Source: Verrucomicrobiales bacterium (GTDB lineage: Bacteria > Verrucomicrobiota > Verrucomicrobiia > Verrucomicrobiales > SLCJ01). From it: a stretch of 55,034 bases of DNA. This document shows, piece by piece, positions 4,747 through 42,164 of the stretch. The notes beneath the pieces are model-generated. The model did not search any database. It was not told the origin of the DNA and worked only from the letters and a program-made list of their open reading frames with translations. The position numbers were made by a program, and so were the translations under genes. How positions within the stretch are numbered: position 1 is the first letter of the stretch; each line of letters opens with the position of its first letter. The stretch spans positions 1 to 55,034 of the forward strand of contig JBJTQJ010000043.1 of NCBI GenBank assembly GCA_046075565.1, read 5' to 3'.

Positions 4747-4755
4747 GTTTTTGGT

Positions 4756-7700: not shown

Positions 7701-7845
7701 TCTGCCCGTGGGCGGCGTCCGGTCCGTGGCACGCGAAACAATTCTTCGAGAGAATAGGCCGGATGTCGCGGTTGAAGACGACCGGTTCTCCCGCCATCAG
7801 GAGGGAAGGTAGGAAGAACGGAAGGAGCCAGAGTCGCAAGCGCAT
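4756..7845 (-). CDS. Planctomycete cytochrome c plus DUF1549/DUF1553 (PSD1) protein
   Basis: Signal peptide, FNRDIRPILSKNCFACHGPD, WLDAARYSD, CAQCHDHKYDP, PSHPELLDWLA, YRRSLY, NTPLQAL. Confidence 0.92.
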   Translation of the reverse strand: MRLRLWLLPFFLPSLLMAGEPVVFNRDIRPILSKNCFACHGPDAAHGQKAKLRLDQVEFALKGGESDKPAIVPGKPEESQLVARIRSSDPDVIMPPPESHLELKPEEKELLTRWIAEGGEYQGHWAFQAPVAPPVPAIAEAGENPIDRFVGARLESERMTFSPEAGRATLLRRLSLDLTGLPPTPEETQAFLADNASGAYERQVERLLSSPRFGEHMAVAWLDAARYSDTNGFSIDGGRHQWLWRDWVIKAFNDNKPYDQFLIEQLAGDLLPDASENQLVASGFNRNNAVTHEGGTIPEENLVNYVADRVKTTSETFMGLTMACAQCHDHKYDPISIREYYQFFAFFNTADDIGLDGNAGVNPRPSIQASSCLSTPEEIGHVQADLAKLKEEFALPLPEAQAAWEAEQREDLSARGRDLRLHALKAASATAPNGNPDRIVIEPDGSVSINSGDYSAYNVLCELPRDAGPIRGLRVVFQGGKNNQLGYGSAKGLEKNFVMSTLTVSTSSFPAANVDLNAMLPFSRISATGAQPGYAATRILDTTPTNGWAPPTGAAGPQHITVTFAEPTDPKAAPYLTAELLFNYGNNCSPGRFQLFAFTGNDDGSPHPEDISSILLTEASQRSPEQAASLQSYFHANCAAKSRVRHQIANLEERLSVLTGKHSVMVMNTSAKPRKTHVLDRGVYSSPLEEVKPGTPAILPPMVAPEGRDLNRLDLARWMTRPDHPLVARVAVNRYWETVFGRGLSASSADFGSQSPWPSHPELLDWLAVHFSTTGWDVKALIRLMVTSRTYRQSSDSTPEMLERDPLNELLARAPRWRLGAEQVRDQALSVSGLLVERLGGPSVRPYQPGDLWRQISHYGSSPATSQTFVQDHGEKLYRRSLYTYWKRTLPPVNLAVFDAPNREVCTIGRTTTNTPLQALVLLNDPQFVEAARAHASKILRASLPDDASRLARLFTETTGRPPEAQEAETLTKALLRERARYESEPNAAAAVLAIGESRVPDDLSPAELAAWMQITSLIHNLSETVTRR

Positions 7846-7901
7846 GGAAGGGTGCTTGTGGAAACACGTTACGCGGCGCTTCGCCGTCTTATTTCGACAT
7901 T

Positions 7902-9056
7902 TTACCCCGGCTTTTTGCCGAGGGTGTAGATGAAATGGGGTGCGTAGAGATCGGGTTCGAGCAGGAACGAATCGTGGCCTTTGTCGGAATGGACGGTGAC
8001 GTGCATGTTGGCCACTCCGGCGTGCCGCAGGTGGGAAACGAGCGCGTCCTGTTCTTCGGGGTAAAAACAAAAATCCGAATCGATGGTAAAGACGAGGAAT
8101 TTATGCCCGGCGGCTTTGCAGCGCGCGAAGATTTCGCTCATGTTGGCGGCACCGGTTTCTTTGACCGGATCGAATCCTGACCACAATTCGGTGAATCGGA
8201 GATACGTGTTGGCATCGAATCGCTCCACGAAGGTCTTGCCCTGATGGAGGATGTAGGATTCGACGGGATCCCGCAATTGATACCAGTCGAAATGGTCGCT
8301 CGATTGGATCACGGATCGACGGGCGCGGCGTTCGATCGCATCGAGGTGCACGAAAGTCTTGTGGGAAATCATCCGCGCGAGAGCGAGCCCGAGCGCCGGT
8401 GGTTTGCGATCATAGTAATCGCCACCTTGGAAGTGTGGATCATTTTCGATGGCGAGGATCTGCTCGAACAAAATCAATCGGTTGAGCACGGTTGTCTTCA
8501 CCCCGCTGGCAATCGGGATCACCTGGTGCACGCGCTCGGGATGCCGGGCGGCCAGCGTGAGGGCGAGCAGCCCGCCAATGGACGGGCCGATGACCGCGTG
8601 CAGGCGTTGGATGCCAAAATGATCGAGCAGGGGCAGGAGGGAGTTCACCACATCGGTTGCCGTCAGATGCGGGAAGGATTTTCCGTAGGGTTTGCCGGTC
8701 TTGGGATTGATGCTCGATGGGCCAGTGCTCCCGTAACAACCCCCGAAGGTGTTCGGGCAAATGATGAAAAATTTCTCCGTGTCCAGCGGTTTGCCCGGAC
8801 CAATGAAGTCACTCCACCAGCCGCGGTGCAGTTCCTCGGTCCAGAATTTTTCCACTCCCGGCACGGTGCGCATGGTTCCGGCGGCGTGATGGCTCCCGGA
8901 AAGTGCGTGGAAGAGCAGGATGGCATTCCCGGCATCGGCGTCGAGCTCGCCGTAGGTGGAATAGGCCAGGCGCGCGTCCGGGATGGAATCACCCGAAACA
9001 AATTGAAACGGCCGCCCGGGGGCGGTGAGGGAAAGGAATTGGGTCTCCGACTGCAT
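7902..9056 (-). CDS. metX: Homoserine O-acetyltransferase
   Basis: HALSG, NTFGGCYGSTGP, GPSIGG nucleophile, RFDANTY, GHDSFL. Confidence 0.9.
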   Translation of the reverse strand: MQSETQFLSLTAPGRPFQFVSGDSIPDARLAYSTYGELDADAGNAILLFHALSGSHHAAGTMRTVPGVEKFWTEELHRGWWSDFIGPGKPLDTEKFFIICPNTFGGCYGSTGPSSINPKTGKPYGKSFPHLTATDVVNSLLPLLDHFGIQRLHAVIGPSIGGLLALTLAARHPERVHQVIPIASGVKTTVLNRLILFEQILAIENDPHFQGGDYYDRKPPALGLALARMISHKTFVHLDAIERRARRSVIQSSDHFDWYQLRDPVESYILHQGKTFVERFDANTYLRFTELWSGFDPVKETGAANMSEIFARCKAAGHKFLVFTIDSDFCFYPEEQDALVSHLRHAGVANMHVTVHSDKGHDSFLLEPDLYAPHFIYTLGKKPG

Positions 9057-9242
9057 GCGATTGGCCGCCAGTTTAACCCGGATTTCAATTTCTGCACGGA
9101 TTCTCCCGTGTCGGGCGCCCGGGGAGGGGGGTAGCCGAAAACGGGAAAAATCCATAGGTTGCCGACCCCCGTTGGAAACGCTACTTTCGAAGGCGGTGGG
9201 ACCGTGATTTCCACGCCCGCCGCCGGTGCCTACCCCATTCCG

Positions 9243-11816
9243 ATGTCCGCCTCCCAATCCATCCCCGCCGGTCTTACCCTGCTCGGCCCGCTAGGCCACG
9301 GCAGTTGTGGGGAGTCGTGCCTCGCCCGCGACGCGAATGGAAACCTCAGGGTGGTCAAATTTTTCAAGGCGATGGGCATCAACCGCCGGTTGCTCATGGG
9401 CGCCCACGCCCGCCTCGCCGAATCCGAGGGCCATCCAGGGGTTGCGAGGGTGCTGGCCAGTGATTTCGACGCCCGCCCGGCGTGGGTTTTGCTCGACTTT
9501 TATGGCGAGCATGGCGCTCGTGGCGCCGTGCCCTGCAATCTGGAAACCTGGCTCGGCCAGCTCCCGCCGCCCGACCTGGCCTGGAAAATCATCCGGCAGC
9601 TCGCCGAGGCCCTCGCTTTCCTCCATCGCATCGGCGTCGCCCATGCCAACCTCCAACCCCGCAACATTCTCATCACCGACCCCGAGCGGGGCGCCATCGC
9701 GCTTACGGATTTCTCCCAAGGATGGGTGGACGGCGTCTATCACTTCGAGGGCACCGAAGCCCTGCTCTACGCCAGCCCCGAACAATTGCGCGAACCGGAA
9801 GGCATTGAGCAGGGCGTCTGGGGTGGCTGGGACGTCTTCGCCTTCGGTTCCCTCGCATTCCGATTGCTGACCGGACGCTTCCCCCGAGCCGATTCTGAAC
9901 GCCGCCAGTTGGAAATCCGCCGCGCCGCCGGTGATGCCATCTCGCCCGCCGCCTTGCACGGGCTTTTCCCCGGCAGCGAAGCCCCCGAATGGGGAGACTA
10001 TCCCGCCGCCGGTTGGGAGGAAAACGCCCGCCGCCACATTCTCGAAACCTGCCTCGCCCTTGACCCGGAAGTCCGCCCCAAGGACATGCGTGAGGTGCTT
10101 GCCGAATTCGACCGCGTCGATGAGGAACGTGGACTGCGCGACGAACGCGAGCGCGTCCGTTCTCTCCGCCTCCGCGAAGTACGTTCCCTCCGCAAAACCC
10201 GCGCCATCGCCATCGCCCTCGGGGTCGGCTGCGCGCTTGCCACCCTCGTCGCCTTCATTTACTCGAACCAATACCGCCTCGCCAGCCGTGAGGTCGACGA
10301 CCTCAAGACCCGCCTTGGCAGCGCCCTCGCCGAAAAGGAAGACGAAATCCGCGTGCGCGAGGCCGAAGCCCGCCGACGTGAAGAGGTCGCCCGCGCCCAG
10401 GCCGCCGGGGCCGTGCGCGAAACCACCGCCATCAAGGAAAATCTCATCCGCTCCCAGGAACAAGCCGATGCCCTCTTCGCGGTTGTGAAAGACCGCAAGC
10501 CCCCCAGCCACCCCGGCTTCAAGGACATCTCGCAGACCGCCACCGAACTCCGCGACTTTTACCAGGACTTCCTCGCCACCACGCCGAAGGATGCTTCCAT
10601 GGACCTGCCCCGTGCCCGCGCCATGGGGAACCTCGCCGAACTCGCCCTCACCGCCGAAGATCGACCCGCCGCCATCCGCTGGCAGACCGACGCCGTCAAG
10701 TTGTGGGAAAAACTCTCCGAACGCGACCTGCGCGACCCCGAACTCCGCTCCCGTCTCGGCTACGCCCTCCTCTTCCTCGCCCAGGCCGATTTTCAGGAAG
10801 GAAAAATCGCCTCCTCCTCTGCGGCCGTGGGGCGTGCCCGCGGGTTGTTCGAGACCCTCGCCAAGGAAAAACCCGGCGACACCGACATCCTCCGTAACCT
10901 CGCCGCCTGTTATCTCCAGCAAGGTCGCATCGAACGCCAGCAAGGCCGCACCGACACCGCCCTCAGTCTCTACAGCGCCGCCAACCAGCAACTCCGACGC
11001 CTCACCGAAAGCACCGGGCGCTTCGACTTCCGCTCGGAGCTCGCCGCCGGTTATGTCGAAATGGGCGAACTCGCCCGCGGCACCAACGACCTCGAGCACG
11101 CTGCCAATGTCCAGCGCGCCGCCCTCGCGCAACTCGTCTCCATGGTCGAGGAAAAACCCGAAATGCTCCTCCCCAAACTCGACCTCGCCCGCGCTTATGG
11201 CGAACTCGGCGAAATCGAATGCGAGGCCGGCAATCCCGACAAAGGCCAGGACCAGTTGAACAAATCCATTGCCATCCTCGAGGAATTGCTCGCCCAGCAA
11301 CCCGGCTCCGAGGAAGTGCTCTTCCAGATGGCGAAAAGATACAGCTCGCTCGCCCGTGCCCACCGCGACCAAGGCCGCCGCGTCGAGGCGGAGAAACTCG
11401 TCGACACCGCCAATGCTTACCTGAAGCGTCTCGCCGAAGCCCACCCCGAGAACTCCTACTACGTTTACAACCGCGCCCTCTCGCTCTGGCAAAAAGCCGA
11501 ACTTCACTCCGACCTCAAACAACTCGACGAAGCCATCGGCGTGATGCGCGAATCGATGAACATCCTCTCCGAACTCTCCGCCCGCCAGGACCTCGATGGC
11601 AGCCAGAGAAAACAAGTCCACATCAGCATGGCTTACCTCACCGGTGACCTCGGCCACCGCTTGGAAGAAGCGCGCCGCCGCGAGGATGCCCTCGCCGCCT
11701 TCCAGACCGCGCTCAAACGCTGGCAAGATGTCGCCGCGACCTACGGACAAGATGAAATCACCGCCGACGCCGTCACTTGGTGCACACGCCGCGTCGAGGA
11801 GTTGAGGTATCCGTAG
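9243..11816 (+). CDS. Ser/Thr kinase-fold protein (probable pseudokinase) with TM, coiled coil and TPR repeats
   Basis: GHGSCG loop, HANLQPRNIL, DFS, YASPEQ, DVFAFG; hydrophobic segment IAIALGVGCALATLVAFIY; TPR-like helices to the C-terminus. Confidence 0.85.
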   Translation: MSASQSIPAGLTLLGPLGHGSCGESCLARDANGNLRVVKFFKAMGINRRLLMGAHARLAESEGHPGVARVLASDFDARPAWVLLDFYGEHGARGAVPCNLETWLGQLPPPDLAWKIIRQLAEALAFLHRIGVAHANLQPRNILITDPERGAIALTDFSQGWVDGVYHFEGTEALLYASPEQLREPEGIEQGVWGGWDVFAFGSLAFRLLTGRFPRADSERRQLEIRRAAGDAISPAALHGLFPGSEAPEWGDYPAAGWEENARRHILETCLALDPEVRPKDMREVLAEFDRVDEERGLRDERERVRSLRLREVRSLRKTRAIAIALGVGCALATLVAFIYSNQYRLASREVDDLKTRLGSALAEKEDEIRVREAEARRREEVARAQAAGAVRETTAIKENLIRSQEQADALFAVVKDRKPPSHPGFKDISQTATELRDFYQDFLATTPKDASMDLPRARAMGNLAELALTAEDRPAAIRWQTDAVKLWEKLSERDLRDPELRSRLGYALLFLAQADFQEGKIASSSAAVGRARGLFETLAKEKPGDTDILRNLAACYLQQGRIERQQGRTDTALSLYSAANQQLRRLTESTGRFDFRSELAAGYVEMGELARGTNDLEHAANVQRAALAQLVSMVEEKPEMLLPKLDLARAYGELGEIECEAGNPDKGQDQLNKSIAILEELLAQQPGSEEVLFQMAKRYSSLARAHRDQGRRVEAEKLVDTANAYLKRLAEAHPENSYYVYNRALSLWQKAELHSDLKQLDEAIGVMRESMNILSELSARQDLDGSQRKQVHISMAYLTGDLGHRLEEARRREDALAAFQTALKRWQDVAATYGQDEITADAVTWCTRRVEELRYP

Positions 11817-18121: not shown

Positions 18122-19576
18122 TCAGCCGGGTTCGTTGTCGTCGCGGGTGCGGTCGCGGAAGCGCATCAGTTCACCGAGGAAGACAAGCGGGACGTCGCCG
18201 GTGGGGCCGTTCCGTTGTTTGGCGATGAAGAGCTCGGCCTTGTTGCCTTTCTCCTCGCGGTCTTCATCGTCCTTGGCGTAGTAGGCATCGCGCACGAGCA
18301 GACCGACGAGGTCGGCGTCCTGCTCGATGGAGCCGGATTCCCGGAGGTCGGAAAGGCGGGGTTTTCCGCCCTCGCGTTGTTCCGGATTCCGGTTGAGCTG
18401 CGCCAGCACGATGACGGGGATTTTCAGTTCCTTGGCGAGCGCCTTGATGCCGGAGGAAATTTCCGAGATCTCCTGCTGGCGGTTCTCCTGGGCGCGTTTG
18501 GTGGTGGAGCGCATCAATTGCAGGTAGTCGATGGCGACGAGGGACAGTGGTTGCTGCGAGTGGACCCGGCGGGCTTTGGCGCGCAACTCGATGATGGAGA
18601 TGCTCGGCGTGTCGTCGATGAAGAGTTTTTTCTCCGCCAGTTCCTTGCCTGTGGACATGATGCGTGCGAAGTCGGCCTTGTTGGCATAACCGTCGCGGAT
18701 GCGTTTGAGGGAAACCCCGGCGCGCGCGCAAATGAGACGTTGCACCAGTTGCTGCGAAGACATTTCCAGGGAGAAAACGAGGGCGGCCTGATTCATGTCG
18801 CAGGCCACGTGTTCGACGATGTTCATCACCAGCGAGGTCTTGCCCATGGACGGCCGGGCCGCAATGACGATCATTTCGGAGGCGTGCAGACCGTCCGTCA
18901 TGGTGTCGAAGTCCTTGAATCCGGTCGCCAGCCCGCTCAGCTCGCCTTTGCTGCTCATCATCTTGTTCAAGCCGCCGACCGCCTCCAATACCTCGCCCTT
19001 GAGGGTGCGCACGGTGTTTTTGGTGTCGGATTGGCGGATGTCGAGGATGTCCTTTTCCACCTCGTCGAGCAGGCCTTTCACATCCCCCTGTTCGTCGTGG
19101 GCGCGGGTGACACAGCGCGTGCAGGACGCGATGATCGAACGGAGCACACGTTTGTCCTCCAGAATTTCCACATATTGCTCGAACAGGGCCGTCGTCGGCA
19201 CGTAGTCCATCAATTCGGACAAATAGGCCGCGCCGCCGACCTCGTTCAATTTCCCGATGTTGTGCAGGTGGGCGGTCAGGGTGACCAGGTCGAGGTGCAG
19301 CCGCTGGTCCTTGAGGGTCGAGATGGCGGCGAAAATCTCCCGGTGGGCGGGATTGAGGAAGGCCTCGGGCTTAAGTTTGCCCAGAACGTTGCCGAGGCAG
19401 CCCTCCGGGTCGACCATCATACAGCAGAGCCCGCCTTTTTCGGCCTCTTCGCTCGACGGCAGGGCCCGGACCGGATCGACCGTTTCTGGCTGGGACTTGC
19501 CCCGCCCGGACCTCTTGGTGCCCCCGGGAACGAGGCTGGCGGCGGATTCGGTGATGGAAGGTGCGGGGTCGGCCAT
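18122..19576 (-). CDS. dnaB: Replicative DNA helicase
   Basis: AARPSMGKT, FSLEMS, IDYLQLM, QLNR, DLRESGSIEQDAD, KQRNGP. Confidence 0.98.
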   Translation of the reverse strand: MADPAPSITESAASLVPGGTKRSGRGKSQPETVDPVRALPSSEEAEKGGLCCMMVDPEGCLGNVLGKLKPEAFLNPAHREIFAAISTLKDQRLHLDLVTLTAHLHNIGKLNEVGGAAYLSELMDYVPTTALFEQYVEILEDKRVLRSIIASCTRCVTRAHDEQGDVKGLLDEVEKDILDIRQSDTKNTVRTLKGEVLEAVGGLNKMMSSKGELSGLATGFKDFDTMTDGLHASEMIVIAARPSMGKTSLVMNIVEHVACDMNQAALVFSLEMSSQQLVQRLICARAGVSLKRIRDGYANKADFARIMSTGKELAEKKLFIDDTPSISIIELRAKARRVHSQQPLSLVAIDYLQLMRSTTKRAQENRQQEISEISSGIKALAKELKIPVIVLAQLNRNPEQREGGKPRLSDLRESGSIEQDADLVGLLVRDAYYAKDDEDREEKGNKAELFIAKQRNGPTGDVPLVFLGELMRFRDRTRDDNEPG

Positions 19577-19587
19577 GGCGGGGGACG

Positions 19588-19616
19588 AATCTACCCGCTC
19601 CGGGGAAAGATCGCAA
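19588..19616 (-). promoter_or_regulatory. Putative sigma70 promoter of dnaB
   Basis: TTGCGA-17 bp-TAGATT, 11 nt before the ATG. Confidence 0.55.
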
Positions 19617-19948
19617 GAACCCGCGGGGCTTTCGCAAGAACTTTGAATTATTTTTCCTCCCGGCGTCGTTCACTCCAGAGCGGATTTTTCCCGGAAAAAC
19701 CGGGGGATGTTTCAATTGGAGGATCCTCCGGATTTCGATTGCGCGATGTTACGAAAGAATTTACTTTACAAATTCGCCCGAATTCGGTGGAAAAGAGAAG
19801 ATCCACTGCAATTCCGGACGACCGCTCCCCGTAACTGGTGCGGTGCTGACAGGTTTACGTGGATCCCACGTGGCTCTGGTGGCTCCGCACATCCGTTCGG
19901 GGCAGCCGGGCCATACCTATCCAGACCAGAGACGCCGCCACAACCACA

Positions 19949-21400
19949 ATGTCCAGTTTTGAACTAGACGGGGGAATCAAGATCTACCTGCGGGAGATCG
20001 GAAAAACCCCATTACTTACCCCCGACGAGGAAGTCCAGCTCGCCGCCCGCATCAAAAAGGGCGATGAGTCGGCTCGGGCCCACATGATCAAGGCCAACCT
20101 CCGCCTTGTGGTGAAAATCGCCCAGGACTACGCCAACTACGGCCTGCCCCTGCTCGACCTCATTTCCGAAGGCAATATCGGCCTGATGAAGGCCGTGGAA
20201 CGCTTCGACCCCGCCAAAGGGGGCAAACTCTCCACCTATGCCGCCTGGTGGATCAAGCAGTCCATCAAACGCGCCTTGGCCAACCAGAGCAAGACCATCC
20301 GTTTGCCGGTGCACATGGTCGACAAGATTTCAAAAATGCGCCGCGTCGCCATGGTCCTGGCCGAGGAACTCGGCCGCGAACCCAGCGACGAGGAGCTGGC
20401 CGAGGAAATCGGCATCGATCGGGCCAAACTCGCCCACCTCAAATCTGCTGCCCTCCGCCCGGCCTCGCTCGACGCGCCTATCAGCGACGACGATACCACG
20501 GAATTCGGGGAAATTGTCGGCGATGAGAACGCACAGACTCCGTTCGAGCTGCTCAGCCACAAGAATATGCACCTGCAGCTCGACGGGCTGCTCGAAGTGT
20601 TGGACGAGCGCGAGCTGAAAATCATCGAGGCACGGTTCGGTCTCAACGGCCAGAAGCCCCGCACCCTCGAAGAAGTGGGTCAGGAATTCGGCGTGACCCG
20701 GGAACGGATCCGCCAGCTGCAGAATATCGCCCTCAAGAAGCTCCGCCGGGCCCTCCAGAAACGCGAAGACCCCGGTCCACGCGCGACCAACAAGGGAGGC
20801 CGCCGCCGCCGCGGTTCAGCCCGCGCCGACGACGATTTCGGCGATGATGATTTTGACGATCTCAACGACGACGACCACGGCGACGATTTCAAGGTCGATG
20901 ACCACCCCGAGCGCGGGGATGATCATTTCGATGAGCCGACCGAACGGCTGGAAAAAGTGGTGATTTATCCATCGGCACCCCTTGAGGAAGGACCCGCCAA
21001 GGCGGAAGTGGCCTTGGTTGAGCTACTTTCAAAGGTTCCGGTGGCCGCAACCAAGGCCGCCAAAGCCTCTGCGAAAGCCTCTGCGAAGGCTCTGGCGAAA
21101 TCTGCCGCCGCACCTGCCAAGTCCAAGGCTTCGGCCAAGGCAGCCGAACCTGCGGCTAAAGCTTCCGCCAAGCCTGCGACCAAATCGCCAGCCAAACAAC
21201 CGGCCAAAGAACCGGCCAAACCCGCGCCCAAGCCTGCGGCGAAAGCTGCCGCAAAAGCTCCGGCGAAAGCTGCCGCAAAAGCTCCGGCCAAGGCACCCGC
21301 GAAAGCTGCGGCGAAACCGGCGGCAAAAGCTCCGGCCAAGGCTGCAGCAAAGGCTCCTGCCAAGGCGTCCAAGCCTGCGAAACCAGCCAAGAAGCGATAA
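19949..21400 (+). CDS. RpoD/SigA-family sigma70 factor lacking region 1.1, with C-terminal acidic patch and histone H1-like tail
   Basis: YLREIG, NLRLVV, DLISEGNIGLMKAVERFDP, STYAAWWIKQ, RTLEEVG..VTRERIRQ; followed by a D-rich patch and (PAKAAAKA)n. Confidence 0.93.
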   Translation: MSSFELDGGIKIYLREIGKTPLLTPDEEVQLAARIKKGDESARAHMIKANLRLVVKIAQDYANYGLPLLDLISEGNIGLMKAVERFDPAKGGKLSTYAAWWIKQSIKRALANQSKTIRLPVHMVDKISKMRRVAMVLAEELGREPSDEELAEEIGIDRAKLAHLKSAALRPASLDAPISDDDTTEFGEIVGDENAQTPFELLSHKNMHLQLDGLLEVLDERELKIIEARFGLNGQKPRTLEEVGQEFGVTRERIRQLQNIALKKLRRALQKREDPGPRATNKGGRRRRGSARADDDFGDDDFDDLNDDDHGDDFKVDDHPERGDDHFDEPTERLEKVVIYPSAPLEEGPAKAEVALVELLSKVPVAATKAAKASAKASAKALAKSAAAPAKSKASAKAAEPAAKASAKPATKSPAKQPAKEPAKPAPKPAAKAAAKAPAKAAAKAPAKAPAKAAAKPAAKAPAKAAAKAPAKASKPAKPAKKR

Positions 21401-21408
21401 TCCTGCCG

Positions 21409-21430
21409 GCAGCGGAAACGGTTCCGCTGC
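21409..21430 (+). terminator. GC hairpin after the sigma gene (possible terminator or stabiliser)
   Basis: GCAGCGGAA-acgg-TTCCGCTGC; no U tract. Confidence 0.35.
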
Positions 21431-21564
21431 GGGCGAAAGCTTCAGGAGTCGCTGGGAATGGTTTTGCGTTCCTTGGGGCAATGTGCAAAATCGTCGCCCC
21501 GGGCAATCTTTGTTGAAAGTTTCTATCCCACACGCCCTGTTAAGCAACCATCTCCGGTTCAAAC

Positions 21565-22860
21565 ATGGATACCTCGCACACCTCCGCCCGCAGTTCTTCC
21601 GTCATTCCCCGTCTCTCCCTGATGATGTTTCTCCAGTTCTTCATCTGGGGAGGCTTTTTTGTCACCATGGGCAGTTACATGCTGCAACTTTTCGGCAAAG
21701 AAGAGAACATCAATACCATCATCGGCCAGGCCTACGCCACGCAAACGTGGGCCGGGTTGATCGCCCCGCTTTTTGTCGGTCTGATCGCGGATCGTTTTTT
21801 CAACGCGGAAAAGGTCAATGCCATCTGCCACATCCTCGGGGCCGGTGTGCTCTGGTATGCGAGCACGGTCACGGAACCGTCCACCTTTATCTGGACGATG
21901 TTCCTTTACTTCATGCTCTACATGCCGACCCTCGCGCTGGTCAATGCCATCGCCTTCTCCAACATTGAAAGTGCGGAGAAACAATTCCCCGCCATCCGTG
22001 TTTGGGGCACCATCGGCTGGATTGCCTCGGGATTTATCGTGGCCCAAACCGTGCTCGGATTCGTCGAGATTCCCCTCATCAAGGCAATTACCGGTGTGGA
22101 AAATGCTCAGAAGACCGCCATCCCGTTGCAGATGTGCGCGATTGTTTCCGCGATTTACGGCATCTACAGTTTCACCCTGCCGGCCTGCAAGCCGGGAGCC
22201 AAAGGCACGCCGATGAATATCGGCAAGGCCCTAGGCTTCGACGCGCTCCAGCTTTTCGCCAAACCCGGGTTCGCCGTTTTCGCCATCTGCTCGTTCCTCG
22301 TCTGTATTCCGCTGGCCTTCTATTACGCCCGCACCAACGATTTCATCTCGGCCATGGCCTTCGGAGAAAAGTCGGCCTCTTACATGACCATCGGGCAGAT
22401 CTCCGAAATCGGTTTCATGCTGCTTGTGCCGTTTTTCCTCGCCCAGCTCGGTGTGAAAAAAATGCTGCTGGTGGGGATGCTGGCCTGGACGCTCCGCTAC
22501 GCGCTTTTCGCGTGGTTTCCCGAGTCCACCGCCATGTTGCTCCTGGGTGTTGCGTTGCACGGCATTTGTTATGACTTCTTCTTCGTGACCGGCCAGCTCT
22601 ATACGGATCGCGTGGCTCCCAAGGAAATCCGCGCCAGTGCCCAGGCGCTGATCGGCCTGCTCACGTATGGTGCCGGCATGCTCGTCGGCAATATCGTTCT
22701 CGGGGCCTGGGGTGATCGCCTCGCACTCGATGGCACCACCAAGGAAGGCTGGCTCGCCGACGCGGCTCAGTTCTGGGGTATGCCCGCCGCCGCCGCCCTC
22801 GCGGTCGCGATTGTTTTCTTCCTCAGTTTCCGCGAACCCGCTCGCACCGAACAAAACTGA
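21565..22860 (+). CDS. MFS transporter, nucleoside:H+ symporter (NupG/XapB/YegT) family
   Basis: RLSLMMFLQFFIWG, FPAIRVWGTIGWI, GQISE, LHGICYDFFFVTGQLY. Confidence 0.92.
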   Translation: MDTSHTSARSSSVIPRLSLMMFLQFFIWGGFFVTMGSYMLQLFGKEENINTIIGQAYATQTWAGLIAPLFVGLIADRFFNAEKVNAICHILGAGVLWYASTVTEPSTFIWTMFLYFMLYMPTLALVNAIAFSNIESAEKQFPAIRVWGTIGWIASGFIVAQTVLGFVEIPLIKAITGVENAQKTAIPLQMCAIVSAIYGIYSFTLPACKPGAKGTPMNIGKALGFDALQLFAKPGFAVFAICSFLVCIPLAFYYARTNDFISAMAFGEKSASYMTIGQISEIGFMLLVPFFLAQLGVKKMLLVGMLAWTLRYALFAWFPESTAMLLLGVALHGICYDFFFVTGQLYTDRVAPKEIRASAQALIGLLTYGAGMLVGNIVLGAWGDRLALDGTTKEGWLADAAQFWGMPAAAALAVAIVFFLSFREPARTEQN

Positions 22861-25409: not shown

Positions 25410-27614
25410 TTAGATCGTCCCGATTGCTTTACGACCGATCCAGAACGCGGTGAAGATGGTGAGGATGGCGGCGGCCCAACCCCAGTGGGACCAGAGGCGG
25501 AGGATGCTGATGCTCGGCTCGGGCTCTGGCAGGGCGGCGATCTTTTCGATCAGGGCGGGCAAATCCCCGGAATTGGCGAGGCTGCCACGGGTGATACGTG
25601 CGATGTCGGCGAGGATGCCCGGATTGGCGGGCTGGCCGGTGCGTTCGATGGGTTCGCCCTGAACGAAGAATTTGGTGGTGACCGAATCGCCATTCTCCGG
25701 ACAGGAGGCGGTGAAGATATGTTCGCCGGGTTGGGTGACGGGGAACGTGCCGTGGAAACTGCCGGGGCCGTCGCGGTTGGGTGTGAGTTCGAGGCGGCGG
25801 GTGCGTCCGTCGGGGGTGGTGGCATCTAACAAGACCGTGCCATCCTTGAGCGGCACGCCGAAGTTGTCGTAGGCGTTGGCATTGAGAGTGAGGGTCAAGC
25901 CGGCCACGGGGTTTTCGGGGGCATAAAAGAGCCGCAGCTTTTCACCTTCGGCCATTTTCCGCTGGTAGCTCATCCAGCGGGCGACTTGGCCCCAGAAACG
26001 GTAGTGGTAGAGATCCTCGACGCCTTTCCGCCAGCGCCACGCCGAGTCGGTGCCTAGGTAGAGAACCTTGCCCGTGCCGGCGGTCATGGTCACGAGAAGC
26101 GGGATACGACCGAAATCATTTTTCATCGTCTCATGCACACCGAGCACATCGGTGCCGGCGCGTGCTTTGAGCACGGGAGCGGACCAGTAGAATCCGGGAA
26201 GCGATTTCCAGAGTTTCGGGTTGTCGCGTTCGTCCGGGGTGAGGATGGTGAGCAGATTGCGGTTGCCGGAATCGGTCAGCACGAGGGCGGATGGAGCGGG
26301 TGCGGCGGTGCCTTGCTTGCGGTTTTCATCAAGCACCACGGGCAGCAGGTCGCCGAGAGGGGTGCCGGCGATGCTGCTCTGGTCGCCCATACGCCCCGGG
26401 ATAAAGACGATGCCGCTGGCTTGCTGCTCGACCAGTTCCTTGAGTAGCCCAGCTTGTTCGATGCTCAGCTGTCCCGGGCCAACGCCGACATCGCCGATGA
26501 AAACGACATCGAAAGTGGAAAGCTCTTTCAGGTCGGAAGGAAATTTATCGACGTAATCGGGACCACCACCGCGGACATCGGTGTCGGGGTGGAAGAGCAT
26601 CGTCTGGACGGTAACCCCGGGGTCGCGCTGGAGGGCGTTGCGGATGAAGCGGTATTCCCAGCGGGGAAGAGTATCAAGCACCAGCACCTTGATGGACTCC
26701 CGACGAGCGTTGAGTTGGATCTTGCGGTCGTTGTTATCGGCGAGCATTTCGCCGGGCACCGCCTCGACGGTGATTTTGAGAGTAGAAGATCCTTCGCGGT
26801 TCGGCGTCCAGAAAACCGATTCGGTGGTCTCGCGTTGAGGTGGGAGTTTGACTTGTTTGGTCACCATGCGGCCGCTGCCGTCGTCGATGCGCACCGTGGT
26901 GGCAATGGCTTCGGGCATACTGTTGCGGATGGTGAATCCGATCTGCGCTTTGTCGCCGACGATGGCAAAAGAAGGGGCACTCACATCGGAGAGGGCAAGG
27001 TCGGGCAATGCCTTGGGAGCGCCGACGGGAATCGGGAAAACGGGAATCTTCTTCGGCCAGTATTCGGCGGCGGCCTCAAGGGGAGAAGATCCGGTATTCG
27101 AATCGCCATCAGTCAGCAACACGACCGCGCGGAGGTTTTCCTGGCGTTTGAGCAGGTTGGAGAGGGCCGCGTTGATGTCGGTTCCATGTTCAGCGGCTTT
27201 CTCGGGCGACGGCGGTGTGGAGAATGGCTCGACGACGACGGAGTTCGGTCCTTCGAGAGAATCCCAGAAACGCGTATCCAATTGACTTTTGATCCACTCG
27301 GCCCGGGTGAGCACCGGAGTATTCTTGTCATCGGGTTTGCCGGTGACATCGCGGGTGGTCATACTCAAGGAATCATCCCAGAGCACGGCGACAACGGGTT
27401 TGCGGTCCGGAGATTGGGTGGTGCGGATTTCCGGCTGCAGCAGGGTGGCGGCTGCGAGCGCGGCGCCGAGTACGCGCAGTGATTCCACAATGACGACGCG
27501 CCGTCCGCCGCCCGAGCGACGCCAGATGAGAATGGAAACAAAGGCAATGGCCACGAAAGCCGCGATGGCCAGGACCTTCATTCCGTTGGAGGCTGCGAAG
27601 TGGAGTTCGTTCAT
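25410..27614 (-). CDS. Membrane protein with vWA-like and GATase1-like domains (MoxR-associated)
   Basis: N-terminal TMs, DDSLSM, GTD, LLTDG, PRWEYRFIRNAL, SAWRWR, C-terminal TM ending W..RK. Confidence 0.8.
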   Translation of the reverse strand: MNELHFAASNGMKVLAIAAFVAIAFVSILIWRRSGGGRRVVIVESLRVLGAALAAATLLQPEIRTTQSPDRKPVVAVLWDDSLSMTTRDVTGKPDDKNTPVLTRAEWIKSQLDTRFWDSLEGPNSVVVEPFSTPPSPEKAAEHGTDINAALSNLLKRQENLRAVVLLTDGDSNTGSSPLEAAAEYWPKKIPVFPIPVGAPKALPDLALSDVSAPSFAIVGDKAQIGFTIRNSMPEAIATTVRIDDGSGRMVTKQVKLPPQRETTESVFWTPNREGSSTLKITVEAVPGEMLADNNDRKIQLNARRESIKVLVLDTLPRWEYRFIRNALQRDPGVTVQTMLFHPDTDVRGGGPDYVDKFPSDLKELSTFDVVFIGDVGVGPGQLSIEQAGLLKELVEQQASGIVFIPGRMGDQSSIAGTPLGDLLPVVLDENRKQGTAAPAPSALVLTDSGNRNLLTILTPDERDNPKLWKSLPGFYWSAPVLKARAGTDVLGVHETMKNDFGRIPLLVTMTAGTGKVLYLGTDSAWRWRKGVEDLYHYRFWGQVARWMSYQRKMAEGEKLRLFYAPENPVAGLTLTLNANAYDNFGVPLKDGTVLLDATTPDGRTRRLELTPNRDGPGSFHGTFPVTQPGEHIFTASCPENGDSVTTKFFVQGEPIERTGQPANPGILADIARITRGSLANSGDLPALIEKIAALPEPEPSISILRLWSHWGWAAAILTIFTAFWIGRKAIGTI

Positions 27615-29605
27615 GTCCGCGGTTGGGGGAGGGCGTCCTCGATTCCTGGCACCTTGCGTCCGGGCAAGGAGAGGAGGGCTTCAGAAAGCAGGAAGAAGAG
27701 CAGGGCGATGGCGAAGGCGCGCCAGATTTCGGAGGCGAGACCTTGTTCGCGGCTCACGCGTTCCTCGAAAAGCCGTGCGCGCATGCCATCGAGCAACTTG
27801 TCGAGTTCGGCGCGTTCAAGGGCAGGTGGAAGAAACTCTGCACCGGGAACATTGACGGCTGCGAGTGTGCTGCCGCGGCGATAGACACCGGCGCGGCTTT
27901 GTGTAGAAGCGGCTCCTTCGGTGGCCGCGCTATCGACGGTTTCCCATGCGGCTTTGGTCGCTGGATCAATTGGCAGTGGATCGCCGAGGGAGAGGGTCGG
28001 GGCATCCTGAGCGAAACGGGCGGCGCTCGAGAGAAGGCGTTCGATCAGCGGCAGGAGAACATTGTAAGATGCGAGGTCCGACCATCTCCGGTCCGGCAGG
28101 GTCGAACAAAACACCGCCTGCCCACGACCGACAACAAGTCGGGAAACCGCAGGAGAACCATCATCGAAAGTAGCAAGCACGGTGGCGTCGCCAGTGGCAA
28201 CGCGGCGGCGGATGATGAAGACTCGATCCATGGCCATGGGCATGCCGTCGCGGAAGTTGGCAAGCGGTCCACCGGTGGTTTCCCAAGAGAGGATGCCGAA
28301 TTTGCCATCGGCAGGCGCCGTCTCTTCAGGTGACCAGCCCAGCCCGAGACAACTTCCGGCGGAGGCCTCGGACGATCCGGGAGGGAAAAAGAGCACCGAC
28401 CCGCCGTTCTCCAGAAAGGTCGTCAACTCTTGCCCAACGGTGGCGTCGGGGAAAGGGGCTTGCCAGATGATTAGTCGCGTGTTTTTCCAATCGATCTTGT
28501 GCGCCTCTTCTGGCGCAAGGACGACCGACTTGCGGCTCGATTGGCCGGGGGGAGCGGAGGCGAGAGCGAGAATCTTGGACGCACGATCCGAGGAAACCAC
28601 CGTGGTGAGCAGGGGGTTCTCCGGGCCGAAGGCGAACCAGATGGCATTGTCGGCGGGCGACAGGTCAGGACCGAGAGTGATGCGGCCCCATCCGCCATCT
28701 TTTCGGTCGCCGACATCGATGCGCTTTCTAAGGGAAAGCACACCTTCTTGAATTTCGATGCTCTCCTGGCTGCCCGCTCCACCATCGAGGGACACCGTGA
28801 GCGGCAGGGAGGCGGATGATTCGCCTACGCGGCGAATATCGAGATCCAACTGCACTTCGGGGCCATCGCGCCAGACATTGATCAAATGGATGCCGTGTTC
28901 GGAAGCAGGTGCGCCTGTGAGGCCGAGCACACGCACGGGAGGGTCCTGACCGAGGGCACGATAGGACGAGCGAATGGTCTGCCAGCGGCCGTCGTTGGCG
29001 GCCCAGTTGCTGGCTTGCAAATCGGAGGCAATCCAGATTTCGGCTTTGCCGGGTTTGGCGGTGGCGAGATAGTCGAGGGCCTTTTCAAAAAGAGCGGGGA
29101 TATCCGCTCCGGCTTCGCTGGGACCGGTTTGCGGAAGATCGGCGAGGGCTTCGGCGGAAGCGAGTTCGATGGGCGAACCTCCCGCGCTGTCGAAGAGCAC
29201 GATGCGCGTGCCGGAGGCGAATTCACGGATGGCGGAGGAAACCCGGTCGAGCGCGTTGGCGCGTTTGGTCGGACCACCTTCTTCGATGCGACTCTCCATG
29301 GAAGCCGAACGATCCAATAACAAAAGGATTGCTTCCGGGCGGTTGCCGCCGAACCAGGAAACCCAGCCACCGGCGAGCGGCCGGCTGAGCGCGAAAATCA
29401 AGGCCGCCACCGCGAGCACGCGGCAGGCAAGAATGAGGAAATGGCGAAGGCGGCGGCGTCCGCGCGCTTGCTGCGTGGCCCGCACCAGGAACATCGTGGC
29501 TGCCCACTTGTAGGTGCGGTGCCTTCGTTTGTTCAGCAGGTGCACGAGGATGGGCACCAGCACGAAGGGCAGGCCGAAAAGCAGGAATGGCTGGAGAAAA
29601 GACAT
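27611..29605 (-). CDS. BatA domain and vWA domain protein
   Basis: MSFLQP..PILVHL..WAATMFL, DRSASM MIDAS motif, C-terminal TM. Confidence 0.88.
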   Translation of the reverse strand: MSFLQPFLLFGLPFVLVPILVHLLNKRRHRTYKWAATMFLVRATQQARGRRRLRHFLILACRVLAVAALIFALSRPLAGGWVSWFGGNRPEAILLLLDRSASMESRIEEGGPTKRANALDRVSSAIREFASGTRIVLFDSAGGSPIELASAEALADLPQTGPSEAGADIPALFEKALDYLATAKPGKAEIWIASDLQASNWAANDGRWQTIRSSYRALGQDPPVRVLGLTGAPASEHGIHLINVWRDGPEVQLDLDIRRVGESSASLPLTVSLDGGAGSQESIEIQEGVLSLRKRIDVGDRKDGGWGRITLGPDLSPADNAIWFAFGPENPLLTTVVSSDRASKILALASAPPGQSSRKSVVLAPEEAHKIDWKNTRLIIWQAPFPDATVGQELTTFLENGGSVLFFPPGSSEASAGSCLGLGWSPEETAPADGKFGILSWETTGGPLANFRDGMPMAMDRVFIIRRRVATGDATVLATFDDGSPAVSRLVVGRGQAVFCSTLPDRRWSDLASYNVLLPLIERLLSSAARFAQDAPTLSLGDPLPIDPATKAAWETVDSAATEGAASTQSRAGVYRRGSTLAAVNVPGAEFLPPALERAELDKLLDGMRARLFEERVSREQGLASEIWRAFAIALLFFLLSEALLSLPGRKVPGIEDALPQPRT

Positions 29606-29620
29606 GGGTCTGGAGCCGGA

Positions 29621-30523
29621 TCAGCGTTTCTTGGGCGTGCGGGCGGTGAGGAAGTCGGCCAGCAGGTCTCCTTGGTCGCAGTCGGTCGTCACGAGATGGT
29701 AATCGGTTTTACAGGCGTGGCATATTCTGCGCACTTCGGCCAGGTAATCGCGCAGGCCCTCATGATAGCGTTCAGCGATGATCCTCGGCTCAAGCGGAAT
29801 GGTCGTGCCGTCCTCGAGATCGACGAAACGCAGCGGACGGTCGAAACGGAACTCGATCTCCTGGCGGTCGAACAGATGGAAAACCGCGACATCGTGTTTG
29901 TTGAAACGCAAATGCTGGAGAGCTTCGTTCAGGCCTTCCGGTTCGAAGAACAAATCGGAAAGCACGACCACCAGCGCGCGTTGGCGGATTTTCTCCGCGA
30001 CCGTGTGAAGGGACGCCACGAGTCCTGTGCCACCTTGCGGGTTGGAGGACACCAGCGCTTCGTAAATCGTCTGCAAGTGCGACGCCTTCCGCATGGGCGG
30101 GATATCCTTGGTGATCTTTTCGCTGCACGTGGTCAAGCCGACCGCGTCACCACCGAGAATGGTCAGGTGCGCGAGCGTGGCTGCCATGCTTCGGGCGAAG
30201 TCGAGTTTGCTCGGACCACCCGAACTGAATCCCATCGAAGCGCTCGTATCGACGACGACATAGAAACGCAAATTCGTGTCGGCCTCGAACTCCTTGATGT
30301 AATAGCGATCCGAGCGCGCGTAAGCCCGCCAATCGAGACGTCGCGGATCATCGCCCGGCACGTATTTCCGGTATTCGGCGAACTCAACGCTCGAACCCCG
30401 GTGCGGACTCTGGTGGCGACCCGAGACGTTGCCGAGCATGGGCATCCGCGAGAAGAGCGGAAGCGCGGCCAAGCGACCCAATACTTTCGGATCGACAAAA
30501 TCTCGGATGGTCGGCGCAGCCAT
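29621..30523 (-). CDS. DUF58 family protein
   Basis: GRHQS..GSSVEFAEYRKYVPGDDPRRLDW, DTSASM. Confidence 0.93.
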   Translation of the reverse strand: MAAPTIRDFVDPKVLGRLAALPLFSRMPMLGNVSGRHQSPHRGSSVEFAEYRKYVPGDDPRRLDWRAYARSDRYYIKEFEADTNLRFYVVVDTSASMGFSSGGPSKLDFARSMAATLAHLTILGGDAVGLTTCSEKITKDIPPMRKASHLQTIYEALVSSNPQGGTGLVASLHTVAEKIRQRALVVVLSDLFFEPEGLNEALQHLRFNKHDVAVFHLFDRQEIEFRFDRPLRFVDLEDGTTIPLEPRIIAERYHEGLRDYLAEVRRICHACKTDYHLVTTDCDQGDLLADFLTARTPKKR

Positions 30524-30548
30524 GAAGTCGCTAGGAGTGATTCCCTAC

Positions 30549-31574
30549 TCAGGCATCCTTGCTGGTTTCTTCGATCAGGCGGCTGACGATTTTTTTGCTC
30601 GAAAAGCCCTCGCTCTCGGCGGTGAAATTCGTCAATACGCGGTGAACGAGCACGGGTTCGGCCACGGCCTCGATGTCTTCCATGCGGGCCATGTAGCTGC
30701 CTTGCAGGGCGGCGCGGGCTTTCGCTCCGAGGACCAGATACTGCACGGCCCGCGGGCCGGCACCCCAGCTGACATATTGTTTGATCCAGTCGGGCGCGGT
30801 CGGATCATCCGGGCGGGTGCGGCGCACGAGGTTGACCGCGTAATCATAAAGGTGGTCCGGCACCGGCAGGCGGCGGACGAGCGACTGGAAGCGCATCAGT
30901 TCTTCGCCGCTGATGATGCGGTTGAGTGTGTTGCGAAAGTCGCCTGTCGTCTCGCGGGCGATGCGTAGTTCTTCCTCCGCGCTGGGATAACCGACCTCGA
31001 TGAGGAACATGAAGCGGTCGAGTTGCGCTTCCGGCAATGGATAGGTTCCTTCCTGTTCGACCGGGTTCTGCGTGGCCAGCACGAAGAATGGTTGATCGAG
31101 ATGGAAGGTCTTGCCCATGATTGTGACCCTGTGTTCCTGCATCGCCTCGAGCAAGGCGGCCTGGGTTTTCGCCGGGGCGCGGTTGATTTCGTCGGCGAGC
31201 ACGATGTTCGCGAAAATCGGACCTCTGACGAATTCGAAAATCCGCTTTCCGCCCGTCACATCATCCTGGAGGATGTCCGTGCCGGTAATGTCCATCGGCA
31301 TCAGGTCGGGGGTGAACTGGATCCGGCTGAAAGTCAGCGACATCGTCTGGGCCAGCGAGCTGATGAGCAAGGTCTTCGCCAAACCGGGAACACCCATGAG
31401 CAGGGAGTGGCCGCGCCCGAAAATCGAAATGGCGAGACGTTCGATGACTTCCTGTTGACCGATAATGACTTTGCCAAGCTCGTTGTTGAGGTTGGCGTAA
31501 AGTTGGCCGAGTTGGTCGATGGCGGCGACGTCATCCTCGTGGATGGTTTGCTGGGCTTGGGCTGAGGTATTCAT
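30549..31574 (-). CDS. MoxR-family AAA+ ATPase
   Basis: GVPGLAKT, RIQFTPDLMP, LADEINRA, ATQNPVEQEGTYPLPEAQLDRF. Confidence 0.95.
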   Translation of the reverse strand: MNTSAQAQQTIHEDDVAAIDQLGQLYANLNNELGKVIIGQQEVIERLAISIFGRGHSLLMGVPGLAKTLLISSLAQTMSLTFSRIQFTPDLMPMDITGTDILQDDVTGGKRIFEFVRGPIFANIVLADEINRAPAKTQAALLEAMQEHRVTIMGKTFHLDQPFFVLATQNPVEQEGTYPLPEAQLDRFMFLIEVGYPSAEEELRIARETTGDFRNTLNRIISGEELMRFQSLVRRLPVPDHLYDYAVNLVRRTRPDDPTAPDWIKQYVSWGAGPRAVQYLVLGAKARAALQGSYMARMEDIEAVAEPVLVHRVLTNFTAESEGFSSKKIVSRLIEETSKDA

Positions 31575-36453: not shown

Positions 36454-37989
36454 ATGACCACCCGCATTCTCGCTATTTGCCTCACCCTATCACTAGCGCC
36501 GAGTCTGGTGTGGTCCGCCGAGGAGAGACGTGAGCAGAAAAAGCCGAATATCCTTTTTATCCTAACGGATGATCAATCGCCATTCGACTTCAAGTTTTAC
36601 GATCCGATGTCTTCCTTGGAATCGCCGCAAATCGACAGTCTCGCGTCCAGTGGCATGGTTCTCGATTCCGCCGTTCACATGGGCTCCTTCGTCGGTGCGG
36701 TTTGCACGCCTTCCCGCCACATGATCATGAGCGGGCGCACGGTTTGGCATTTGCCCATTGGTCCGGGCGAGCGGAATTGTCCGGCCCAGCTGGAACAGAA
36801 TACCATTGGTGCCGTGTTCAATCGCGCCGGTTACGCGACCATGCGCACCTGCAAGAAGGGCAACAGCTATGAAGCCGCCAACCAGCAGTTCAGCATCGTG
36901 CACGACATGACGAAACGTGGAGCCACCGACGAAACCGGGAGCGCTTGGCATGCCGAGCGTGTGCTGGATTATCTAAAGACGCGGCAGGACACCAAAGACG
37001 CCCGGCCGTTCTTCATCTATTTCGGCTTGTCTCATCCTCACGACACGCGGGATGGTAAACCGGAGTTGCTCGCGAAATACGGCGCCACCAATCATACCGA
37101 TCCGAATTCACCGCCACCATCCCACCCGAAGCAGCCACCTCTTCCTCTCAACTGGCTTCCCGCCCATCCCTTCGACAACACGGAATTGAATGTCCGTGAT
37201 GAGCGCAAAGTCAGTGGTGTCTGGGCACGACGGGACCCTGCCACCATTCGCAACGAAATCGGACGCAACCACGCGTGCGCGGAAAATGTCGATATCCAAG
37301 TCGGGCGTGTGCTCGCGCGACTGAAGGAAATGGGTGAGCTCGAGAATACTTACATCTTCTACACCGCCGATCACGGCATCGCCATCGGACGCCACGGCTT
37401 GCAAGGAAAACAAAACCTCTACGAACACAGCTGGCGGGTTCCCCTGATTGTCAAAGGCCCGGGCATCAAACCGGGCAGCCGGGCGACCGGCAATGTTTAT
37501 CTCGCCGACCTGCTCGCGACCATGTGCGACCTGACCGGTGTGCCCCCGCCGAAGACCAATGAAGGGACCAGCCTCAAGCCCGTCCTACTTGGCGAGAAGG
37601 ATTCCATCCGCGATACTCTCTATGGTGTCTATTCCGGGGGCGGCAAGCCCGGGATGCGTTGCGTGAAGCAGGGCGACTACAAACTCATCGAGTATGAATC
37701 CCCGGAAACCCGCGAAACCCAGCTCTTCAATCTGAAGGAGAATCCCCGCGAATTCGTCGCCGAGCACCAAGCGCCGAAAGTCAGCACCCACACTGGTGTT
37801 GCTCCCGCTGCCACGCAAACCAACCTTGCCAACGATCCCGCCCACGCGGCAAAGCTCGCCGAGATGCAAGCCCTTCTCCTCGCCGAAATGCGTCGGCTCA
37901 ACGATCCCTACCGCTTTACAAACCAACCCTCCGATGGTCTGGTGCCAACTGCTGACGACAAGGCCAAGGCCCGCGGGCGAAAGAAGTAA
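36454..37989 (+). CDS. Secreted formylglycine-dependent sulfatase
   Basis: PNILFILTDD, CTPSR, PHD, ADHG, GKQNLYE. Confidence 0.93.
   Translation: MTTRILAICLTLSLAPSLVWSAEERREQKKPNILFILTDDQSPFDFKFYDPMSSLESPQIDSLASSGMVLDSAVHMGSFVGAVCTPSRHMIMSGRTVWHLPIGPGERNCPAQLEQNTIGAVFNRAGYATMRTCKKGNSYEAANQQFSIVHDMTKRGATDETGSAWHAERVLDYLKTRQDTKDARPFFIYFGLSHPHDTRDGKPELLAKYGATNHTDPNSPPPSHPKQPPLPLNWLPAHPFDNTELNVRDERKVSGVWARRDPATIRNEIGRNHACAENVDIQVGRVLARLKEMGELENTYIFYTADHGIAIGRHGLQGKQNLYEHSWRVPLIVKGPGIKPGSRATGNVYLADLLATMCDLTGVPPPKTNEGTSLKPVLLGEKDSIRDTLYGVYSGGGKPGMRCVKQGDYKLIEYESPETRETQLFNLKENPREFVAEHQAPKVSTHTGVAPAATQTNLANDPAHAAKLAEMQALLLAEMRRLNDPYRFTNQPSDGLVPTADDKAKARGRKK

Positions 37990-38081: not shown

Positions 38082-42164
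<4,083 letters not shown>

Follow-up and report, generated by a model that had tools for sequence, protein, structure and literature searches.

A sigma-70 factor of a Verrucomicrobiales lineage with a conserved, charge-segregated C-terminal tail, and its putative role in DNA binding

Is the long, repetitive tail that follows region 4 in a sigma factor gene of a Verrucomicrobiales bacterium a real part of the protein, and if so, what might it do there? The gene lies at 19949..21400 (+) of a DNA stretch of 55,034 nucleotides (contig JBJTQJ010000043.1, assembly GCA_046075565.1; the whole stretch is referred to as the window), and its translation gives a sigma-70 family factor of 483 amino acids (aa) with a C-terminal extension, without interruption up to a TAA stop codon (21398-21400). 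A preliminary description of the locus had read this frame as complete sigma regions 1.2-4 without region 1.1, followed in frame by a GGRRRR motif, a D-rich stretch and Ala/Lys/Pro (AKP) repeats; all of these elements are borne out by the domain, frame and charge analyses below. The fusion of the sigma core to this extension, its conservation among close relatives and its charge architecture are established. As to function, the tail is read here, with moderate confidence, as an electrostatic DNA-binding appendage of region 4.

The sigma core is represented by four Pfam families in order, each of which scores above its own Pfam cutoff: region 1.2 at the very start of the protein (aa 10-40, 19976..20068 (+); PF00140, Sigma70_r1_2, E 3.6e-15), region 2 (aa 46-115, 20084..20293 (+); PF04542, E 2.3e-19), region 3 (aa 126-200, 20324..20548 (+); PF04539, E 1.5e-18), and region 4 (aa 214-266, 20588..20746 (+); PF04545, E 3.1e-15). 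With regions 1.2, 2, 3 and 4 in this order, the protein belongs to sigma-70 groups 1-2 (RpoD/RpoS-like). No model for region 1.1 and no other family was found in the protein (Pfam, E<=0.01). A word-index search yielded at least 7998 relatives at E<=0.001 among 8000 scored candidates, and the best 120 were listed (284-508 aa; the named sources are Verrucomicrobiales or Verrucomicrobiota, bar one partial record labelled Methylococcales). The frame upstream of the ATG at 19949 is open for 30 codons only, to a GTG at 19859, and the offset of the region-4 motif from the start is 254 in 113 of the 120 listed homologues (249-291 in the other seven); the ATG at 19949 is therefore taken as the start, with no space left ahead of it for region 1.1. 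This region is truly missing, and the protein is not a canonical E. coli-type RpoD with region 1.1 at its N-terminus. Solved primary sigma chains align with aa 5-270 and end within about 10 residues beyond, and the final modelled helix of region 4 comprises aa 251-273 (AlphaFold); since solved SigA chains end near aa 270, the sequence past about aa 270 is an extension.

The best solved relatives of the core are Firmicutes primary SigA chains (7l7b_F, E 6e-79, aa 5-270), ahead of RpoS (9e-70), and the source labels of the orthologues read 'primary sigma factor' or 'RpoD/SigA'. The core is identical among organisms whose DnaB homologues are 95, 90, 77 and 72% identical, a comparison that is indicative only, as the contigs are unpaired; the DnaB encoded in the window is 56% identical to that of the nearest named species, Sulfuriroseicoccus oceanibius (Verrucomicrobiaceae). 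Because SigA is nearest among the solved structures, the core is more conserved than DnaB and the source labels agree, the protein is probably the extremely conserved, group-1-like housekeeping sigma factor of an uncultured Verrucomicrobiales lineage. Some primary sigma factors naturally lack region 1.1, for example sigma A of Bacteroidetes, which resembles the short-tailed orthologues described below in its length (about 290 aa), its start at region 1.2 and its annotation as primary; we know of no long C-terminal tail in primary sigma factors that lack region 1.1.

The extension comprises blocks of opposite charge. A proximal basic patch (aa 271-292, KREDPGPRATNKGGRRRRGSAR, 20759..20824 (+); net +7 by charge count) contains the GGRRRR motif (aa 283-288, 20795-20812), and 'EDPGPRP' with a basic run is conserved family-wide in the alignment of homologues. 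It is followed by an acidic block with repeated DDDF/DDF acidic-aromatic units (aa 293-339, 20825..20965 (+); 22 D/E against 4 K/R, net -18), a short mixed linker (aa 340-365, net -2 by charge count), and the AKP block of 118 aa (aa 366-483, 21044..21397 (+); 31 K/R against 2 D/E, net +29). When counted from the charge minimum onward, the distal block covers 125 aa, with 84% A+K+P and a net charge of +30. Two short elements stand out from the repeats, namely the conserved non-repetitive motif ERLEKVVIYPS (aa 332-342, 20942..20974 (+); from a regular expression and the alignment) and LSKVPV (aa 360-365, 21026..21043 (+)), which in the alignment is the counterpart of 'LPKAPV' in relatives, with S in place of P. 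No AKP or acidic block of this kind was found in other open reading frames (ORFs) of the window.

In an AlphaFold model built with a 51-sequence alignment the core is helical, with block means of the predicted local distance difference test (pLDDT) of 63-90 at aa 11-170 and 51-74 at aa 201-270; from aa 281 to the end the block means are 29-43 (about 30 in the AKP block), with no secondary structure. Most of aa 274-483 scores below 50, and these residues are predicted to be intrinsically disordered. By composition and disorder the tail falls among the low-complexity tails that resemble the C-terminal domain of histone H1 (Ala/Lys/Pro-dominated, strongly basic, disordered, about 100 aa or more), which are a functional class and not a homology family. 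The DNA of the AKP block has an imperfect 12/24-bp periodicity; its best unit is 24 bp in five copies that match at only 79%, and the four Ala codons are mixed in the tail (GCC 20, GCG 15, GCT 12, GCA 9), in agreement with the remark in the preliminary description that codons vary among the repeats. The codon usage of this block differs from that of the core, perhaps because perfect repeats are avoided or because translational selection is weaker.

To assess conservation of the extension, the tail was taken to begin where the region-4 motif ends. By this measure 28 of the 120 listed relatives have tails of at least 100 aa, the other 92 being short or mid-length. The cores were placed in a quick IQ-TREE tree (134 rows, of which 118 differ; support from the Shimodaira-Hasegawa-like approximate likelihood ratio test, SH-aLRT, only), where the protein falls into a clade of 19 rows (SH-aLRT 99) that represent separate contigs or assemblies from four source collections. 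All 19 members are long-tailed (102-238 aa) with open frames, and all 19 share one block order, i.e. a basic patch (+2 to +9), an acidic block (-10 to -42) and a distal basic block (+12 to +43; A+K+P share 50-84%). A stop codon lost after LQKRE, which the preliminary description had proposed to look for, is answered by this comparison, and the scoring of orthologous tails that it had suggested gives a conserved architecture. Within the tails, ERLEKVVIYPS is matched by regular expression in eight and an LPKAPV-like motif is present in 11 of the 19. The 270-aa core is identical in six rows including the query, i.e. the protein of the window, and their tails are 44-53% identical to the query tail; judged from these alignments, the constraint on the tail appears to act on composition rather than on sequence. 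In four members of the clade with shorter distal blocks (P0015, P0016, P0018 and P0019) the motif RGRGRPRK occurs at aa ~331-342, and KKGRPPKKK additionally in two of them; the Pfam model AT_hook (PF02178, cutoff 17.4 bits) gives 14.6 bits for P0018, 14.5 bits for P0019 and about 7 bits for P0015 and P0016. As a separate observation, ERLEK is followed by V, L or M in seven of the eight motif-bearing relatives and by Q in one, and the codon at this place in the window is GTG; that an internal start at this point would give a free H1-like protein of about 146 aa is pure speculation, and a hydrophobic position fits the pattern equally.

Outside this clade the extension is mostly a stub. Related loci were retrieved as the best 80 of at least 600 stretches in species-representative genomes, a selection in which long-tailed genomes may be missed; they come from Verrucomicrobiales, Chthoniobacterales, Luteolibacter and Haloferula, and encode proteins of 282-318 aa in total with cores 74-93% identical to the query and stubs of 12-48 aa. 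Many of the stubs hold the first two blocks in miniature (e.g., EDPGPRPLRK and then PDDDFFREE; often "DDDFF"), and among the 92 short or mid-length tails of the 120 listed relatives, [DE][DE][FY] is found in 52 and a net-negative distal part in 69. As the basic-then-acidic stub is common in short-tailed relatives, it is taken to be the older element, with the acidic block expanded and the AKP block added later. A joint arrival of the acidic segment and the AKP tail was considered and rejected, since most short-tailed relatives already have the stub.

A second clade (15 rows, SH-aLRT 98), which lies close to Verrucomicrobium sp. BvORR034 and Prosthecobacter, contains seven rows with acidic-plus-AKP tails that are interspersed with short-tailed ones; six of the seven have the same block order, and P0110, a long-tailed member, is without an acidic block. 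These tails therefore indicate at least two independent gains. Two further ones among the 28 long tails are of another kind: P0034 carries an R/S-rich tail on a core identical to that of the short-tailed L001, and the tail of P0070 is mixed and not of AKP type; both are probably frameshift or read-through artefacts in public assemblies.

Searches with the tail itself returned no family to which it could be assigned. Pfam gave no match at E<=10 for aa 270-483 or aa 362-483, no histone H1-like, Hc2 or linker-histone family was matched (Pfam at E<=10; ESM Atlas), and ESM Atlas gave no usable match for aa 271-483, where all structure rows had template modelling (TM) scores <=0.33 to unrelated proteins. 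A tail-only word search returned nine proteins, namely the query, six sigma orthologues, P0121 and P0122. When the tail was compared exhaustively by phmmer with 1.84 billion representatives, nine matches at E<=0.001 were obtained, in the AKP part only; the eight that were scanned are unrelated to sigma factors (malectin, LRAT, a BKRF4-like match, or no family), and the ninth is P0123, a protein of 5937 aa. On these searches the tail appears to be a compositional module without a sequence family, and not a homologue of AlgP, Hc2 or H1. The label 'histone H1-like' that it had been given thus holds for composition and predicted disorder; a homology to AlgP, Hc2 or H1 is not supported by Pfam or phmmer. 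An origin by gene fusion likewise finds no support, as no free-standing H1-like donor protein was found in the tail searches. A C-terminal AKP tail also occurs in P0121 (312 aa; E 7.7e-5 in the tail-only search), together with a cold-shock domain and an ArsC-like segment; nucleic-acid-binding proteins other than this sigma factor thus bear such tails as well.

In holoenzyme structures, region 4 of sigma sits on the -35 element, with its C-terminus turned towards upstream DNA. The best reading of the locus, and a moderately probable one, is that of a real polypeptide in which region 4 continues into a disordered, charge-segregated extension of 213 aa that would act as an electrostatic DNA-binding appendage, with the acidic block as counter-charge. 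With region 4 on the -35 element, the C-terminus would emerge on the upstream promoter face, where the RRRR patch and the long AKP block could make non-sequence-specific electrostatic contacts with upstream or nearby DNA. Such contacts may raise the affinity of sigma or of the holoenzyme for the nucleoid and for promoters, and the tail would then be an inbuilt equivalent of the WhiB7 AT-hook or of a reader of UP elements. The basic patch lies 10-20 residues past the last helix and the +29 block sits on a flexible tether, and both would therefore be placed to contact promoter-proximal DNA; the AT-hook-like motifs in sister tails argue for DNA as the ligand. The acidic block, which stands between two basic segments in all 19 clade members, might fold back on these segments or on region 4, as an internal counter-ion that limits DNA binding by free sigma. 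We infer the upstream positioning of the tail and the autoinhibition by the acidic block, and the tempering of free-sigma DNA binding by this counter-charge is the least supported part of the reading.

Precedents for the single elements of this reading are found in three reports. DNA binding is described for peptides with KPAA repeats and for a C-terminal AlgP fragment (PMC9239181), the lysine-rich PAKKA repeats in the basic C-terminal tail of Mycobacterium smegmatis Ku are reported to modulate DNA binding (PMC3553676), and WhiB7, bound to region 4 of SigA, contributes an AT-hook for AT-rich DNA immediately upstream of the -35 element (PMC3905903).

A number of observations weigh against a DNA-binding appendage. 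DNA binding by the tail is proposed from composition and analogy only. Across the 19 clade members the net charge of the whole tail varies between -22 and +30, a spread that is hard to reconcile with a single tuned affinity. The G+C content at third codon positions is 0.56 in the AKP block against 0.80 in the core, where 21 of 26 Ala codons are GCC, and from this codon usage translational selection on the tail looks weaker. The long tail is absent in all 80 of the best related loci retrieved, and judged from these loci it would be dispensable for the family; the charge spread, the relaxed codon bias and this absence together count against a finely tuned function. No RGRP or AT-hook motif was found in the query, which is thus not an AT-hook protein, and the AT-hook matches of its relatives stay below the Pfam cutoff. 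No contact between the acidic block and region 4, the core or the AKP block was predicted by AlphaFold, which is weak evidence either way, as such models rarely capture fuzzy contacts. As for the housekeeping role, the scores of the query stay below the NCBIfam equivalog cutoffs for RpoD (NF004208, 324 against 555) and RpoS (TIGR02394, 311 against 379); for RpoD_Cterm (TIGR02393) the score is 280 against a cutoff of 354.

The closest known system is the actinobacterial principal sigma factor (SigA/HrdB, PRK05901) with its N-terminal AKP/acidic region, which like the query combines a group-1 core, long AKP repeats and an acidic block. The actinobacterial-type SigA among the tail-only matches, P0122, carries at its N-terminus AKPAAKAPAK-type repeats over about 150 aa, which an acidic stretch separates from regions 1.2-4; it passes the model NF004561 (PRK05901) with 730 bits against a cutoff of 582 (model over residues 22-544), whereas the query scores 266 and is not of PRK05901 type. 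Actinobacterial SigA has this region at the N-terminus, where region 1.1 would otherwise stand, whereas that of the query is C-terminal, after region 4; the block order relative to the core is reversed, and phylum and origin differ.

AlgP, PhaF, mycobacterial HupB and Ku, and chlamydial Hc2 resemble the query in composition, disorder, tetrapeptide-scale periodicity and the C-terminal position of their tails; PhaF is among them as a DNA binder. The query tail differs from these tails in that no homology is detectable, that it is attached to a sigma factor and that a large acidic block lies ahead of it. The WhiB7-SigA pair shares with the query a basic DNA-minor-groove element at region 4, placed just upstream of the -35 element (a placement that in the query would follow from the geometry of region 4). 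In WhiB7, a redox-sensitive protein distinct from sigma, the element is one defined AT-hook, whereas that of the query is covalently part of sigma, a diffuse AKP block, and without an AT-hook. Functional C-terminal extensions past region 4 are reported for extracytoplasmic function (ECF) sigma factors (ECF41, ECF42 and others; PMC3426412, PMC8999054). The ECF extensions are folded and sit on group-4 sigma factors with regions 2 and 4 only; the query has regions 1.2 and 3 and a disordered extension, and is not an ECF factor of this type. No group-1 or group-2 sigma factor with a C-terminal AKP or H1-like tail is described in the full-text literature searched, which leaves most subscription journals outside.

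A bolder form of the DNA-binding reading is possible but doubtful when taken as a whole: the sigma factor may have turned into a nucleoid-associated protein, whose tail (with AT-hooks in the sister proteins) would clamp DNA upstream of the -35 element in the manner of an UP-element or activator and possibly form condensates, and whose expanded 'DDDFF' stub would be an analogue of region 1.1 that gates binding. A nucleoid tether or a condensate module had likewise been put forward as possible in the preliminary description.

The best surviving alternative, which we consider rather unlikely, is that the AKP block targets another polyanion (polyphosphate granules, RNA) or drives condensates of RNA polymerase, and not promoters; segregated charges would favour self-coacervation, and the tail is strongly segregated (+7, -18, then +29). 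According to PMC9239181, AlgP, whose tail has the same composition, is found at polyphosphate granules and depends on its KPAA domain to space them; over-digestion of such tails by trypsin is noted there for AlgP, too. AKP tails occur on unrelated proteins, including the cold-shock-domain protein P0121. However, the window contains no polyphosphate or granule gene context, the AT-hook-like motifs of the sister tails point to DNA, and the attachment to region 4 adjoins promoter DNA, as seen from holoenzyme structure. Such a target would also be compatible with a DNA-binding appendage, and does not exclude it.

It is unlikely that the acidic block functionally replaces region 1.1 by mimicking DNA and occluding region 4 or the polymerase channel until a promoter is engaged, with the AKP block being secondary. 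The absence of region 1.1 from the query would suit such a role, as would the basic-then-acidic stub, which is widespread without an AKP block, and Firmicute SigA has the compositionally similar DDFFDQLNDND in its N-terminal part, upstream of the aligned core. The alignment to Firmicute SigA is insignificant, however (chain residues 49-67 of 368; -0.4 bits, i-Evalue 5.5e3), and AlphaFold docks the acidic block nowhere; a relocated, region-1.1-like autoinhibitory segment, as had been put forward in the preliminary description, thus finds no support. The stubs of Chthoniobacterales and Luteolibacter orthologues (12-20 aa) have few acidic residues, the long-tailed P0110 of the second clade does without an acidic block, and a tail that starts from region 4 begins far from the main channel, as known from solved structures.

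Equally unlikely, or slightly more so, is a tail without a specific binding role, i.e. a tolerated, drifting low-complexity expansion, or an element for solubility or half-life (entropic bristle, protease or lysine-acetylation substrate). The fast sequence turnover, the variable length and net charge, the relaxed codon bias, and the absence of the tail from the best 80 related species-representative loci would all be expected of such an element. All members of the clade (19 of 19) nevertheless keep the tail, with its blocks in one order, it has an independent origin in the second clade, and short motifs are conserved within it; frequent loss would be expected of a drifting repeat on a near-invariant, probably essential protein.

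Finally, an artefact, in which a lost stop, a frameshift or a mis-assembly joined a sigma factor of about 290 aa to low-complexity DNA, non-coding or from another frame, is very improbable: most relatives do end 12-48 aa past region 4, several frames stay open in GC-rich repeats (ORFs at 20982-21968 (+) and 20965-21390 (-) overlap the gene), and the tails of P0034 and P0070 do look artefactual, but in-frame long tails with the same three-block order are found on 19 of 19 independent contigs of the clade, these tails have diverged to 44-53% identity without gaining a stop, ERLEKVVIYPS (8/19) and LPKAPV (11/19) are conserved within them, and a strong hairpin follows the annotated stop.

This hairpin is a G+C-rich, perfect 9-bp stem without a T-run, eight nucleotides past the stop codon (21409..21430 (+)); the fold of 21395-21450 has -25.6 kcal/mol (z = -3.1), and the hairpin is likely the transcript end. 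No sigma-70 consensus promoter was found in a scan of 19400-21700, and terminator-like sites in this range were not above those in shuffled sequences. Upstream, the gene is separated from dnaB (18122-19576 (-); Pfam DnaB, DnaB_C) by a divergent intergenic region of 372 bp (19577..19948), as the preliminary description had noted. Among the 80 related loci, dnaB is nearby in only three, and there downstream on the same strand; a linkage to dnaB as a functional clue was rejected for this reason, and the divergence appears to be incidental.

No Rfam match was obtained over the whole window. Other predicted genes comprise a PSCyt1-PSCyt2-PSD1 protein (1103 aa) adjoining a DUF1501 protein (3128-8067 (-)), a pair characteristic of Planctomycetes and Verrucomicrobia; an 885-aa Ser/Thr protein kinase with TPR repeats (9159-11813 (+)); a BatA-N / DUF58 (vWA) / MoxR-type AAA_3 ATPase cluster in the typical arrangement of an aerotolerance operon (27611-31571 (-)); and two sulfatases (36454-37986 and 38082-39497). 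A Pro/Lys/Arg-rich stretch from about position 10318 lies in a stop-free plus-strand frame that overlaps the kinase ORF.

Sigma factors are usually thought to contact DNA via their folded regions 2-4, and contacts further upstream are assigned to the alpha subunit or to activators. The extension described here suggests that promoter search, upstream-DNA contacts or the clustering of polymerase may be built directly into sigma, with an architecture that is conserved, was gained at least twice, and in which AT-hook-like motifs are substituted in relatives. For the AKP/acidic regions at the N-terminus of actinobacterial SigA and HrdB, which are poorly understood, it provides a natural counterpart at the C-terminus. 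If the bolder reading were true, the tail would represent a new, convergently evolved route to promoter affinity within sigma itself, mirrored N-terminally in Actinobacteria.

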